Assembly (NCBI GenBank): GCA_963777605.1 | Contig: CAVZRV010000030.1 | Span: 320,001-384,000, forward strand | Direction of reading: 5' to 3' | Length of the DNA stretch: 64,000 nucleotides | DNA from: an uncultured Acidobacteriota bacterium | GTDB taxonomy: Bacteria; Acidobacteriota; UBA6911; RPQK01; JAPXNP01 | Part shown: positions 59,126 to 64,000 of the stretch, piece by piece | Layout: every line of letters starts with the position of its first letter | Numbering within the stretch: position 1 is the stretch's first letter | Program-made: the position numbers and the translations under genes | Notes under the pieces: generated by a model | Database searches by the model: none | Told to the model about the DNA's origin: nothing | What the model saw: the letters and a program-made list of their open reading frames with translations, nothing else

Positions 59126-60148
59126 ATGGTGAAATTGCAGTCTGAACGCCTTCCAGAGTCCCGCTGGATGTTTTGGGTTCTCTGGATGGCAGCGCTGTCC
59201 AATTTCGTGTTCGGCGCCCTGCTCTCCGTGTTCACTGGGAATGCCTTCCGGATGCTCGGCGTCGAGTCCCCGGTGGTGTCTCTGGTCTGGGAAGTCGTCG
59301 GGGTTGCGGTGGCAATTTACGGAGTTGCTTACGCGGTCGCCGCGTTCGACCCTGCCCGCTACTGGCGCCTGGTTCTGATCGGCCTGGTTTCGAATGTGGC
59401 CGGGCTCGCTGTTTTTCTGTATGCGGCCGTCTTCCACGGTTTTCCCTGGAAGTTCGGCTGGCTGGTCTTGCTGGTTGACGGAATCTGGCTGGTCCCGTTC
59501 GGGGCCATCCTGCATTACACCTATCAGCGTTTCCGAACGGAGCGGTCCGCCGCCTACGGTTCGATCCGGGAGGCTCTTTGCGTATACCGGAACGGCGACG
59601 GAGAGGATCTCCTGACTCTCTCCTCGCGGGGCCCTCTACTGATCGTTTTTCTGCGGCACGCGGGGTGTACGTTCTGCCGCGAGGCGATGGGAGACCTGGC
59701 CGCGGTCAAGCGCCGCATCGACGAACGAGGCACCGAGTTGGTGGTGGTCCAGATGGGTTCGGCCCGCGAGGGTGCGGAACTGGCACAGCGGTTCGGCCTG
59801 CGCCCCGGACAGGCGGTCAGCGATCCGTCCCGGCGCCTTTACCACACCTTCGAACTCCGGAGAGGCTCCCTCTGGGAGTTGATCAACCCGAAAGTGATAT
59901 TCCGTGGTTTCACGGCCGCTTTTCTGAAAGGGTACGGGATGGGGAAGGTTCGGGGGGACAGCACCCAGATGCCCGGCGTCTTCCTGGTTCGGGACGGGAA
60001 AGTGGTCCGAGAATACCGTCACCATTCGGTAGCCGATCGCCCCGATTATATTGCCCTGGCCTCCCTGAGTGCGGAAAACCCGGCAGGCGGAGCGGGCGCC
60101 GGGGACACGGCGGACTCGAGCCTGGTCGGATTCCGCACGAATTCGTGA
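59126..60148 (+). CDS. Membrane protein fused to a peroxiredoxin-like (AhpC-TSA_2/SelL-related) redox domain
   Basis: About four N-terminal TM helices; VFLRHAGCTFCRE, SDP...LY..F.L, GD..QMPGVF, ADRPDY. Confidence 0.82.
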   Translation: MVKLQSERLPESRWMFWVLWMAALSNFVFGALLSVFTGNAFRMLGVESPVVSLVWEVVGVAVAIYGVAYAVAAFDPARYWRLVLIGLVSNVAGLAVFLYAAVFHGFPWKFGWLVLLVDGIWLVPFGAILHYTYQRFRTERSAAYGSIREALCVYRNGDGEDLLTLSSRGPLLIVFLRHAGCTFCREAMGDLAAVKRRIDERGTELVVVQMGSAREGAELAQRFGLRPGQAVSDPSRRLYHTFELRRGSLWELINPKVIFRGFTAAFLKGYGMGKVRGDSTQMPGVFLVRDGKVVREYRHHSVADRPDYIALASLSAENPAGGAGAGDTADSSLVGFRTNS

Positions 60149-60386: not shown

Positions 60387-60463
60387 GCGCCCGTAGCTCA
60401 GCTGGATAGAGCGCCGGTCTACGAAACCGAAGGTCGCCCGTTCGAATCGGGCCGGGCGCGCCA
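60387..60463 (+). tRNA. tRNA-Arg(ACG)
   Basis: Cloverleaf: acceptor gcgcccg/cgggcgc, D-arm gctc/gagc, anticodon loop ctACGaa, T-arm gcccg-ttcgaat-cgggc, encoded CCA. Confidence 0.96.
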
Positions 60464-60538: not shown

Positions 60539-61630
60539 TCATGCGGCCCCTTCCTTCTCTTCTTCCTGCTTCTGCTTGGCACCTTCGATCAGATGCAAAC
60601 CCCGTTGAACCGCCAGCCGGTGTGAGTGGAACGCGTAGAAGCGTTCCGTTGTCGACAGCCGCGAATGTCCGAGCAGCGTCTGAATCGTGTGCTTTTCGAG
60701 GCCCGGAGTGTTCGAGAGCCGGATTCCAAAGGCTGTGCGCATGTCCTTGATACGAAGCCATGAATAGCCTGCGGCTTTGCGGGCCGAATCCCAAGGCTTG
60801 CGACAGTCGAACCAGCGATCCAACGTCTTCGGGTTGTAAAACACGTGCTCACCGACTCTCGGCATTCGGCGGATAGCCTCGCTCGCCGGCTGCGTCAGTG
60901 CGATGTAGCGAAGCTCTCCGGCTTTCGTCTTCGGCAGCACGACCAGGTGATCCTCGAGGAAAACCTGATCGTGCTTCAAAGAGAGTGCCTCTTCCCGTCG
61001 GCAACCCGTCTCATAGAGAAAGCGAAACACCGGCTCGCACTCCGGTCGGAGCTTTGCTAGGGTTTCCTGCAGCGCCTGCTCGAGGATCGGCAGGTACCGA
61101 TCGGCGATCGCCGGCTTGTGCTGCTCGTGGAGCTTGCGCAGGCGCGGAATCGGATTGCGTGAGATGAGCTCCTGCTCGACCGCCCAGTTCAGCATGTGCT
61201 TGAGCACGGCCAAGTCTCGATTGATCGTGGCCGCGCTGAGGCCGTTCCGCATTTTCTTTCTCTCGGAGATGAACACCGTCACATCGAAGGGTGAAAGCTC
61301 CTCGACAGGGATGTGCCCGAGCTGATCCGTCAGCAGGCGCAAGCGACTGAACTTGGTCTGCGGATCACGATTCGCAACGAGAACGTACTGCTCGTAGTAC
61401 ACGTCTGCCAGTTCCTTCAGCGACGAGGTCGGTCCCTCGGTCTTGTTCAGCTCGGCCAGAGCTTCCTTCACTCGACCTTCCAGCCGCGCGATCTTTAGCT
61501 TCAGTTCGGCCGACTGAGCCAATTCCTCGGTCGGATAACGGCGTCTCCACCTTCGATTTCTGTCTCGACGATTTCCGGGCAAATAGATGCTGATCTCCCA
61601 AGACCCGTTGGGGAGTTGTTTAATGCCCAA
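60539..61630 (-). CDS. Tyrosine recombinase/phage integrase
   Basis: TTG start after AGGAGG; SAATINRDL, ETGCRREE, PKTK, IKDMR, LLGHS..STT..FY. Confidence 0.9.
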   Translation of the reverse strand: MGIKQLPNGSWEISIYLPGNRRDRNRRWRRRYPTEELAQSAELKLKIARLEGRVKEALAELNKTEGPTSSLKELADVYYEQYVLVANRDPQTKFSRLRLLTDQLGHIPVEELSPFDVTVFISERKKMRNGLSAATINRDLAVLKHMLNWAVEQELISRNPIPRLRKLHEQHKPAIADRYLPILEQALQETLAKLRPECEPVFRFLYETGCRREEALSLKHDQVFLEDHLVVLPKTKAGELRYIALTQPASEAIRRMPRVGEHVFYNPKTLDRWFDCRKPWDSARKAAGYSWLRIKDMRTAFGIRLSNTPGLEKHTIQTLLGHSRLSTTERFYAFHSHRLAVQRGLHLIEGAKQKQEEEKEGAA

Positions 61631-61958
61631 GGGAGTCCTCCTTTCGGTAGAGTCTAGCCGGGTCTTGAGAAGGCATCTTAAGCGCTCGGCCATCAACCGG
61701 CAAGCTTCCTTTCCGATCAGCCGGCAACTGGGCCATGCGATCGACTGGCAGACTGGGCGGAATTTCCTCGAGATCCTGCCGGAGATCAATCCGGGTCTTA
61801 CCCAACAGCCGAAGGAGGATCCGGTCATCTTTGACGAGTCCCCGATAGAGATGGTTCCCAACGCCCAGAAACTGAGCAGCCCTTCTCTCCCGAAAACCCT
61901 CGGGAACGGCATCCTTGATCATGTCTGGAACCATCACCAATCGAAGTCTTCCCATCAT
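61620..61958 (-). CDS. Excisionase-like HTH protein
   Basis: AAQFLGVG...YRGLVK..RI....LGKTRI.LRQDLEE resembles HTH_17/Xis; 3' end overlaps the integrase start. Confidence 0.55.
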   Translation of the reverse strand: MMGRLRLVMVPDMIKDAVPEGFRERRAAQFLGVGNHLYRGLVKDDRILLRLLGKTRIDLRQDLEEIPPSLPVDRMAQLPADRKGSLPVDGRALKMPSQDPARLYRKEDSLGH

Positions 61959-62218
61959 GAGGTCAAACAAAGAGAGCAACATCCCCGACCACAGAACTCA
62001 ACCGGAGACCGTGGCTTCATGACCTGGCCCCTACCTAACAAGAGAGCTGGAAACCGGAAAACCTCAAAGAGCCGCGGTCCTCAATCGATGCCGAGAAGGA
62101 CGACTCCAACAGTACGGCCATCTCCGATACCCTCCCGCCAGCCTTGAAGTCTCTAGCCGATCACTTGCCGCAATTCGAGATCGAAGGGCTGATCGGCTAG
62201 GGCGGTATGGGGGGGTAC

Positions 62219-62932
62219 TGTCAACTTAACAGGCCATCGCAGACAATCGGAGAATGCCAACCGATCCCAGTTACTCCCGCCACCGGTCTTCACCTCAGAT
62301 CATCAGCTATACCAGCCCCAATTCTTGACCAGCAGGTTGGTGGCATCGGTCTGCCACTGCTCGTTCGGCGCCGTGGTCTTGATCGCGTATTCCGATCCGG
62401 CCGGAAACGTCTTCTGTTCGAGATCTGGAATCAGCGCTTCCGCCTTCAGGATCCGGTAAACGGACGACTCGGAGATCGTAAAGCCGCACTGGTCGGTGAT
62501 GTGGCAACTGACTTCGCGGGACGACCACTCCGGGTAGAGCAGAGCAATTTGCAGAACCTGATCCCGTTCGGCGGGCAGGATCCGGTTCCAGGCTCGCCGT
62601 CTGGACGAAGGCTGATCGTGCAGTCCTGCCCGGCCCCGTCGGCGGAAGTTCGTGCGCCAGCGGTAGTAGGTCGATCGAGGAATGCCCAGCTGCGCCAGGG
62701 TTCGATTAACGGGCACAGAAGCGGCCTCCACCGCCCGCAGGATTTCGAGTTTGATTTCGGCGGTCATCCGTTCGTATCTCCGCCGATTCAGAGGCCCAAA
62801 CTTTTTTTGAGCCGCTGGTTCTCGAGGACCATCTCGGCCACGGCCTGCTTGTGAACTTCGTGGTCTCCGTTATCCTGGGCGTTTCGATTGACATAGTCGT
62901 TCGCCATCATCGACCTCCAGTAAGAGTCGACA
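62219..62932 (-). mobile_element. Internally deleted IS3/IS481-type insertion sequence retaining both ends
   Basis: Ends TGTCAACTTAACAGG and TGTCGACTCTTACTGG; flanks gtac/gttc; orfA remnant LENQRLKKS with A7G slippery site; orfB stops after WQTD...WGWY. Confidence 0.75.
62303..62767 (-). pseudogene. Truncated DDE transposase (HTH plus first catalytic Asp only)
   Basis: LGIPRSTYYRW, AWNRI, SESSVYRILK, TTAPNEQWQTD, then a premature stop. Confidence 0.85.
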
Positions 62933-63084
62933 GTTCGTTTGTGTCGTCTCTTCTGACTCAACGCCGCGCCTTCACGCAGACGCTGCCGCACACCATCACT
63001 CGCCCGCCGACGTGCCGCTCGTTAACGCGTTGGCGGGAATGGTGAATGCTCCAGATGGCAGGGCAAGATCCGCCCAACCTGCAT

Positions 63085-63495
63085 TCAGGCTCTCGTGAAG
63101 ACGTTGCAACCCGCCAGAATGCCCGCCCAGAGCCTTTCCGGCTCGTCCTGGTCCGGAACGTTTTGGGCCAGGTGCCACAGCGTGTGGATCTTTTCGACGC
63201 CGCTGTCGACTGTGTGTTGTCCCGCCCAGGCCGTCAACGACCCGTAGGCCCCAAAATTCACCACAAATGCAATGAGATCGCCTGAGGCAAATCCGCGAAG
63301 TTCGAACTCCTCCGTCGGCGGGGGCAAACCCACATTCGTCTTGTACGTCCCTTCAACGAGGCCGCTAGTCAGAACTTGCAGGGTCATCTCCGACCCAAGG
63401 CCGTTCTTCCATTCCCCCGAGAAGTCGATCGACGGAATCGGTGCCGGTTTGGGCGTAAACCCGCTGATCAAGTTACGGAGTAAAGGTGTGTTCAT
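63085..63495 (-). CDS. Avidin/streptavidin family biotin-binding protein
   Basis: SGEWKNGLGSEM, GTYKTNVG, FVVNF, SLTAWAGQ, IHTLWHL, W....G.NVFTR; GGAGG RBS. Confidence 0.88.
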   Translation of the reverse strand: MNTPLLRNLISGFTPKPAPIPSIDFSGEWKNGLGSEMTLQVLTSGLVEGTYKTNVGLPPPTEEFELRGFASGDLIAFVVNFGAYGSLTAWAGQHTVDSGVEKIHTLWHLAQNVPDQDEPERLWAGILAGCNVFTRA

Positions 63496-63644
63496 CAGTT
63501 ACCTCCCAATCGGTTGAGCACGTTTGCAGGGGATCTATTCATCAAGCATCGAGCCCAATCGGACTTGAGCAAAATTGTCTTTGAGCCGCACTTCCTTGCC
63601 CAACTGCAGGCATCGGCGCCCTGCCATCTCATGAACTTGCTCGG

Positions 63645-63968
63645 CTATCGATCGCAACCACCTGTCTTTCGGTGGAGTCGGGCGGGATCTTGAACCGACT
63701 TCCGGCACAGCTCCAGGAGGCGATCCGCCAGACGGCCTGCCTGCTGTGCGGTTCGATCGATTTCCGTCAACGCCTCATGTTCCGGTCGCCCGGGACGCAG
63801 ATGGCTCTGGGCCAACTGGGAGCGGACCGCAATGATCGTCAGCATGTTCTTGAAGTCATGGACCACGTCGGCCGTCAGTAGACTGAGTGCCTCCAGTTGA
63901 GAGATGTCTGGGTGTCGAGGTGGGGCGGCTTCTGCTGGAGAAACGTTGGATCTCGATTGAATCGTCAT
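63645..63968 (-). CDS. HisKA dimerisation/phosphoacceptor domain only (truncated kinase or stand-alone)
   Basis: LEALSLLTADVVHDFKNMLTII...IDRTAQQAGRLADRLLELCRK; stop before any HATPase domain; 5' start uncertain. Confidence 0.65.
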   Translation of the reverse strand: MTIQSRSNVSPAEAAPPRHPDISQLEALSLLTADVVHDFKNMLTIIAVRSQLAQSHLRPGRPEHEALTEIDRTAQQAGRLADRLLELCRKSVQDPARLHRKTGGCDR

Positions 63969-64000
63969 GAGAAAGAGACGCCGCTCGGGAAGTCCCGCAG

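Follow-up and report, generated by a model that had tools for sequence, protein, structure and literature searches.

A leaderless avidin-family gene near a tRNA-Arg(ACG)-associated integrase in a probably biotin-auxotrophic acidobacterium

Streptavidin is a secreted protein without a pocket disulfide. According to the available sections of PMC5398887, it is made as a precursor that is trimmed at both ends, and vertebrate avidins are glycosylated and carry a 24-residue signal peptide for secretion. The same sections describe the biotin pocket of avidin, in which Asn12, Ser16 and Tyr33 contact the ureido oxygen, Asn118 and Thr35 contact the ureido nitrogens, Thr77 contacts the sulfur and Ser75 the carboxylate, and Trp97 is complemented by Trp110 of the neighboring subunit, which closes the pocket in tetramers (PMC5398887). 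The closest functional analogs of the protein described here are tamavidins 1 and 2 of the fungus Pleurotus cornucopiae, which are fruiting-body-specific, cytoplasmic and tetrameric, and which we liken to it by function and not by sequence. As reported in the part of PMC6238071 available to us, tamavidins poison C. elegans, Acanthamoeba and Drosophila, strongly inhibit fungivorous nematodes and do no harm to E. coli or A. gossypii producing them. For bacteria, the accessible portion of a 2021 survey gives a predicted signal peptide in only ~50% of the putative avidins, places more than 10% of them in mobile elements and reports that recombination and defense GO terms are enriched nearby (PMC8033661); the portion of its main text that is available does not mention Planctomycetes, Kiloniella or Photobacterium.

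We analyzed a 64,000-nt stretch of DNA (hereafter the window; C30:320001-384000) from a 6.73-Mb, 53-contig genome (G000) and characterized the single avidin-family gene copy of that genome. Named homologs of the host's isocitrate dehydrogenase, at 73-79% identity, bear the labels Planctomycetota, Phycisphaeraceae and Maioricimonas as well as those of Acidobacteria and Latescibacterota bins, and so hint at Planctomycetota only weakly. The features of the locus and of the loci compared with it are collected in Table 1. As the original prediction had claimed, the gene is an open reading frame with a good ribosome-binding site, and its product has one cysteine, C130. The N-terminus cannot be extended because an in-frame TAA, read from the sequence, stands two codons 5' of the start. 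On the strand of the gene, no sigma-70-like promoter was found within positions 62200-64000, the repeat search around the gene returned no flanking repeats, and an Rfam scan of the whole window returned tRNA only. A search of sequencing runs listed no RNA run and seven DNA runs, each containing less than half of the sampled words (best share 0.27).

Table 1. Positions of the features discussed in the text (without a prefix: positions in the window)
Feature	Position	Strand	Remarks
SelL-related redox protein	59126-60148	+	Just upstream of the tRNA; NCBIfam 145 bits, cut-off 120; N-terminal half long and hydrophobic
tRNA-Arg(ACG)	60387-60463	+	Putative integration target; tRNA scan, Rfam
Tyrosine recombinase (integrase)	60539-61912	-	457 aa; Pfam Phage_integrase 8.3e-14, Int_N
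Transposase N-terminal fragment	62303-62767	-	154 aa; HTH_32, HTH_23; stops roughly where a catalytic domain would start
67-aa ORF	62788-62991	-	No Pfam match; between transposase fragment and avidin gene
Leaderless avidin-family gene	63085-63495	-	136 aa; barrel at residues ~25-135
Shine-Dalgarno-like GGGAGG	63502-63507	-	Five bases 5' of the ATG
PAS-HisKA sensor kinase fragment	63645-64000, on to 64451	-	268 aa; 3'-truncated, without HATPase_c
Pair of 57-nt palindromic elements	L002 4609-4665 and 6600-6656		77% complementary; bracket a 1.9-kb segment
RHS protein	L002 7432-13131		1899 aa; past window end
ORF after the RHS gene	L002 13620-15179		Also bears an SLT domain; past window end
IS66-family element	L002 16282-19125		Apparently intact; perfect 24-nt inverted repeats at its ends
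Orphan 3' halves of tRNA-Arg(TCT)	C35:87326-87358, C35:96364-96392, C31:138799-138823		Two of them 9 kb apart
Two tandem tRNA-Arg(ACG) in relative G002	L032 2178-2340

The open reading frame is real and is a bona fide avidin-family gene. Its product scored 76.7 bits (cut-off 24; E-value 2.4e-21) on the Pfam Avidin profile (PF01382), residues 25-134 aligning to profile positions 2-116 of 116, so that the family assignment of the original prediction, for which this search had been proposed as a check, is confirmed over the whole profile. A phmmer search against the PDB sequences returned 174 distinct avidin-family chains at E ≤ 1, led by dual-chain avidin (1.5e-13) and xenavidin (1.8e-11); chicken avidin followed at 4.3e-7 (query residues 25-135 on avidin 6-122), and rhizavidin, bradavidin 2 and core streptavidin lay in the 1e-5 to 1e-4 range, core streptavidin itself at 2.6e-4. 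The AlphaFold2 monomer, built from a 23-sequence alignment (mean pLDDT 84.8, pTM 0.73), has eight strands and a short helix at residues 4-10, and the model together with Foldseek identifies the eight-stranded antiparallel β-barrel of the avidin family. Foldseek returned 467 PDB matches at E ≤ 0.001, and the matches listed, which include streptavidin, rhizavidin, xenavidin, avidin and relatives, are avidin-family structures only (target-normalized TM up to 0.88). Chicken avidin and xenavidin (PDB 1AVD, 2UYW/2UZ2) are the closest sequence matches among solved structures, with 31-34% identity in the fold alignments and TM up to 0.88. Streptavidin is also bacterial and has the same fold, a streptavidin structure being the top Foldseek match (3t6f, E 6.5e-8), but its identity in fold alignments is 22-27%. 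We considered whether the protein is a streptavidin orthologue, and ruled this out because it scored 25.3 bits against a cut-off of 300 in the NCBIfam streptavidin equivalog, far below what orthology would call for.

To place the pocket residues, the HMMER alignment was read against avidin. N12, S16, Y33, T35 and S75 of avidin correspond to N31, S35, Y51, T53 and S86 here, and T77, W97, W110 and N118 correspond to T88, W107, W123 and N131; all nine biotin contacts listed in the available part of PMC5398887 are thus retained, including the inter-subunit tryptophan. In a clade alignment of 23 sequences, N31, S35, W107 and W123 are present in all 23, Y51, T53 and T88 in 21 and S86 in 20, and position 131 is N or D throughout. 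Two aromatic positions differ from avidin, W70 being replaced by F81 (F81 in 23/23 clade members) and F79 by W90. The original prediction had described the pocket as largely kept with few substitutions, and its list proved correct; it used streptavidin numbering, which we take to denote, substitutions included, the avidin-aligned positions given here. From this conservation we infer that the protein binds biotin, and judging from the sequence, the W70 to F81 replacement could lower the affinity.

The changes around the pocket leave some room for another ligand. The barrel might bind a biotin analog, a biotinylated protein or peptide or a small molecule instead, or bind biotin only weakly, and several features fit this: the clade of 23 differs from avidin in the second shell, where, besides the invariant F81, the position of avidin F72 is variable and that of avidin S73 is a tyrosine in 18 members; a motif specific to the clade, centered on Pro58, Pro60 and Phe64, lies in the loop that follows strand 3; and the avidin family does accept peptide ligands, as with the Brad-tag (PMC5398887, in the sections available). 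However, all of the nine hydrogen-bonding and stacking residues for biotin are kept and strongly conserved, and we regard a ligand other than biotin, or feeble biotin binding, as distinctly unlikely.

The original prediction had also called for a structure prediction of the tetramer. A four-copy model scored 0.85 against 0.07 for the best control, its runs sharing at least 51% of contacts with partner pLDDT of at least 74, and in the calibration of the tool the mark was reached by 20 of 30 solved homomers and 1 of 23 single chains. Strands 65-93 and 106-112 make up the modeled interface together with the loop at 123-129. The PDB holds many solved avidin tetramers, so the good score may stem from resemblance to these and not be independent evidence. 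The tryptophan that tetrameric avidins carry in the L7,8 loop is W123 here, and 22 of the 23 clade members have no or one cysteine, so that they are free of the L3,4-L5,6 disulfide. Judging from the model, the protein probably forms a tetramer, as avidin and xenavidin do, in which W123 of a neighboring subunit seals each pocket.

The N-terminus differs from that of the secreted avidins. The 24 residues 5' of the barrel form a non-hydrophobic extension relative to avidin, with a maximal 8-residue Kyte-Doolittle mean of 0.84, neither Cys nor RR, and no run longer than 6 residues free of charged residues, N/Q/H or Pro. By this hydropathy heuristic of our own and the scan for RR and Cys, the protein has no Sec, Tat or lipoprotein signal, which separates it from the vertebrate avidins and from secreted bacterial avidins of the streptavidin and bradavidin type with their N-terminal Sec signal. 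With the stop upstream of the start, these values agree with the earlier claim that the protein lacks a hydrophobic core and a signal peptide. The same holds for the clade, in which none of the 23 members has a hydrophobic core (maximal 8-residue hydropathy 1.56) and several start directly at the barrel. The protein is thus presumably cytoplasmic, and non-classical export may occur.

To see how widespread this architecture is, a profile search was run over 1.84 billion cluster representatives; it recovered 1202 relatives with E ≤ 1e-3, of which 431 passed a threshold of 1e-10 and 33 one of 1e-30. Among the best 149 representatives, 139 were usable (Met start and domain N-terminus covered), and a signal-like hydrophobic region, defined by our own heuristic as a 9-residue hydropathy of ≥ 2.0 with at least 17 residues before the barrel, was present in 29 and absent in 110 of these 139. 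Leaderless avidins are therefore a large group, and the missing leader is no oddity of this gene. Together with the 2021 survey (PMC8033661, in the portion available), this count weakens the novelty of a leaderless, mobile avidin that the original prediction had implied; such bacterial avidins are already known, and the gene overturns nothing.

In many leaderless avidins the barrel is preceded by a short amphipathic helix at the N-terminus and then a linker rich in proline; the corresponding helix in our model, at residues 4-10, has a pLDDT of ~60-70. Others of the same broad leaderless group end in a tail. A C-terminal tail containing Ser-His-Pro was found in 22 of the 140 nearest representatives with a covered barrel C-terminus and in the clade member P0051. 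The tail motif resembles Pro-Ser-His-Pro, and P0157 contains SHPQF, which we take to be the core of the Strep-tag II peptide; these tails look like natural intrinsic ligands of the pocket. The protein studied here ends one residue past the last strand and, having no C-terminal tail, lacks such a plug, in which it differs from the Ser-His-Pro-tailed avidins, and from bradavidin and full-length streptavidin with their intrinsic peptide ligands.

The gene is scattered among distant bacteria. A word-indexed search gave 65 homolog clusters with 48-93% identity and 91-151 aa, including a full-length metagenome homolog of 93% identity (P0001); a scan of species-representative genomes gave 26 loci, and metagenome contigs added 38 further loci. 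Carriers are labeled Nitrospirae, Myxococcota, Methylomonas, Kiloniella, Nibrella, Vicinamibacteria, Pseudomonas, Serratia, Tatlockia (two copies), Pirellulaceae, Thermodesulfobacteriota, Binatia and Acidimicrobiales, among others, so that the leaderless clade is spread patchily over at least nine phylum labels. In a quick tree of 26 proteins (25 loci, with L026 left out, plus the window protein), the phyla are mixed: their labels change 11 times, where 8 changes would be the minimum. Since only 3 of its 23 inner branches have strong support, the tree fits transfer but falls short of proof. Closer to home, the query found no homolog in any of the 60 relatives searched, of which 15 belong to the same family and 45 to the same order (0 of 59 without G018). 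We also searched mobile DNA. Of 138 pattern matches among IMG/VR viral contigs none was a relative, and a phage collection gave no match. An avidin-family gene is present in 85 of 72,556 plasmid records (45 from Xanthomonas, 39 from Burkholderia and 1 from Rhizobium), and 53 of these plasmids are predicted to be conjugative; all of these avidins have less than 60% identity to this protein and only two more than 40%, and one Xanthomonas record names export in its annotation, 'exported avidin family protein'. The family thus travels on mobile DNA, as the accessible part of PMC8033661 also says. We conclude that the gene was probably acquired horizontally.

The surroundings of the gene are rich in mobile-element remains. 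The integrase stop codon lies 76 nt from tRNA-Arg(ACG), so that a tRNA and an adjacent tyrosine integrase are found together, and the avidin gene is situated 1.2 kb from the integrase between the truncated transposase and the truncated kinase. The C-terminal part of the 67-aa reading frame presumably resembles the leucine-zipper end of an IS3-type OrfA. Beyond the kinase fragment follow, in order, an HTH protein, the RHS protein with a duplicated 3' cassette, an SLT-domain protein and a TonB-C protein, and further downstream the apparently intact IS66, an adenylosuccinate synthetase fragment, an IS6/IS240 transposase, a subtilase and an IS21 IstB; the variable region spans at least 33 kb. The reading frame after the RHS gene repeats 300 nt of the RHS 3' part with 93% identity, exactly 2000 nt downstream, and looks like an orphan RHS tip cassette. 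The segment bracketed by the palindromic elements contains an HTH_3 gene and two reading frames without an assigned family.

These surroundings raise the possibility that the gene is a passenger without a current role among decaying mobile-element debris. The flanking truncated genes and the lack of a promoter-like site on its own strand speak for this, but the reading frame is intact with a strong ribosome-binding site, the metagenome homolog of 93% identity is full-length and the pocket is conserved across the clade. We give this explanation only a slim chance.

Whether the region is a delimited island is less clear. To look for att sites, the 77 kb that follow the tRNA on C30 were searched with exact k-mers (14-30 nt) and, using the tRNA and its flank as query, with blastn-short. 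The k-mers revealed no exact direct repeat of the 3' end of the tRNA measuring ≥ 14 nt, and blastn-short gave no match. Fragments resembling a tRNA 3' end came only from tRNA-Arg(TCT), on other contigs (Table 1), and these orphan halves are possible att scars left by other elements that integrated. Two paralogous integrases are encoded elsewhere in G000, on C8 beside tRNA-Asp and on C29 at 5.5 kb from tRNA-Arg(CCG); together with the one described here they look like a family of tRNA-targeting integrases. In composition the gene is typical of its genome, with a GC of 58.4% and a GC3 of 71.5% (49th percentile) against long-ORF means of 59.7% and 70.9%, and it does not show the atypical composition of a genomic island. 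The upstream gene and tRNA-Arg(ACG) are arranged in the same way in three relatives of another genus (G002, G010 and G014). In G002 the two tandem tRNA-Arg(ACG) are followed by a homologous integrase with an 84% identical translated segment, and in G010 and G014 no match to this integrase was found downstream of the upstream gene and tRNA. Synteny with all three stops right after the tRNA, so that the borders of an island cannot be set from these relatives.

The original prediction had called the gene cargo on a tRNA-integrated island, and this was upheld in part. The integrase beside the tRNA, the abundance of IS elements and gene fragments, and the lack of a homolog in the 60 relatives agree with it; the missing att repeat, the undefined far border and the ordinary GC3 do not. 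With a gene that does not stand out in composition from its genome, and with no att repeat to be seen, a recent island transfer is unsupported.

The host appears to depend on external biotin. Its genome, rated 96.7% complete, encodes BirA (118.6 bits against 83.1) and BCCP (164.4 against 115.2), but its best bioB match reached 21.1 bits against 225, and bioD and BioY, the transporter family covered, had no match. Given BirA and BCCP without these genes, the host is probably a biotin auxotroph. Only 1 of 15 family relatives had bioB above the cut-off, and the lineage is probably auxotrophic as well; overall, bioB exceeded the cut-off in 7 of 31 genomes (counting G000 and G018, both without bioB). 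In these circumstances the protein could serve to hoard or buffer biotin: a cytoplasmic sink would trap the scarce imported vitamin, limit its leakage and its loss to competitors, and release it on turnover. The gene set of the host and the rarity of bioB in its family are in line with this. However, bioB is present in 16 of the 25 other genomes with clade homologs, whose completeness is not stated, so that avidin carriage is not tied to auxotrophy; moreover, avidin-biotin complexes are protease-resistant and very tight, which would make release difficult (PMC6238071 and PMC5398887, as far as available), and none of the 25 most recurrent Pfam families among the neighboring genes is biotin-related. 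Literature searches for intracellular avidin, or for avidin in connection with biotin auxotrophy, returned nothing relevant. We regard hoarding as unlikely, if still worth weighing.

A more specific version, in which release is built in, is more speculative and has little probability in our view: the avidin of an auxotroph would be a vitamin trap and not a weapon, drawing scarce biotin into the cell and banking it, and the N-terminal helix and proline linker would gate and release biotin, making it a regulated, reversible avidin. The conserved helix and linker, which most tail-less leaderless avidins have, would then gate the pocket much as the Ser-His-Pro tails may.

We examined the neighbors of the homologs for a conserved partner. 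An all-against-all BLAST of reading frames within 6 kb at 27 loci found no conserved neighbor outside four syntenic gammaproteobacterial bins. A Pfam scan took in 147 neighboring reading frames of up to 900 aa from 23 loci, with a single locus standing for the four syntenic ones; 137 families were found, the most recurrent only 3 times (Resolvase 3, Phage_integrase 2), and the 25 most recurrent families contained no biotin-related gene. The Pirellulaceae homolog lies between two tyrosine recombinases, a Nitrospira homolog beside an nSTAND3 / PDC-S73 candidate defense protein and a Methylomonas homolog beside a C5 DNA methylase, so that 2 of the 10 closest homolog loci inspected have a defense-like immediate neighbor; apart from the Pirellulaceae recombinases, the other neighbors are ordinary or unassigned.

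These data bear on the idea that the protein acts as a self-starvation module, in which an induced avidin would starve biotin carboxylases and thereby abort phage infection or enforce dormancy. The position of the gene in a variable region and the defense-like neighbors in Nitrospira and Methylomonas are compatible with it. However, PADLOC found no match for the avidin or eight other proteins of its own locus, barring weak HTH matches, and no partner or antidote is conserved across the 27 loci, the 147 neighboring frames falling into 137 families; neither mark of a known anti-phage system (a PADLOC match or a conserved multi-gene module) was found. Biotinylated enzymes would presumably stay active without free biotin, so that arrest would be slow, and a full-text literature search on avidin in anti-phage defense gave only a phage methods review. 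With no relative on phage records or viral contigs either, the growth-arrest or defense role put forward in the original prediction is not supported, and we consider it highly improbable.

The reading we prefer, to which we give an even chance of being right, is that of a leaderless, cytoplasmic, tetrameric biotin binder encoded by a horizontally acquired, stand-alone accessory gene and sequestering biotin against others. The protein would fold into the eight-stranded avidin barrel and assemble into a tetramer in which each pocket is sealed by W123 of a neighbor. As nothing in its sequence directs export, it would remain inside the cell and capture free biotin in the cytoplasm. The gene would have entered, as a stand-alone accessory gene, the IS-riddled variable region that starts with the integrase at tRNA-Arg(ACG). 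The sequestration of biotin would then harm others and spare the producer: upon lysis or ingestion of the cell, the protease-resistant binder would keep biotin from grazers or competitors. A role against grazers may be proposed by analogy only, the model being the tamavidins, which are cytoplasmic, tetrameric, safe for the producer and toxic to grazers (PMC6238071, in the part available). Since tamavidins are harmless to E. coli and Ashbya producing them, a cytoplasmic avidin need not poison its producer. This harmlessness is less certain here, because the BirA of an auxotroph would compete with a tight binder for scarce biotin, and the E. coli of the tamavidin work is a biotin prototroph, unlike the probably auxotrophic host.

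Full-text literature searches turned up no work on the function of any bacterial avidin that lacks a leader. If the protein described here is a tight biotin binder, its clade would consist of small, cysteine-poor avidins with neither a disulfide nor a signal peptide, and such avidins should fold in the bacterial cytoplasm and be useful as reagents. Leaderless avidins are numerous, and grazer protection, vitamin hoarding or something else are candidate roles for them; a carrier without biotin synthesis, such as this acidobacterium appears to be, would be a pointed test case for what leaderless avidins do.
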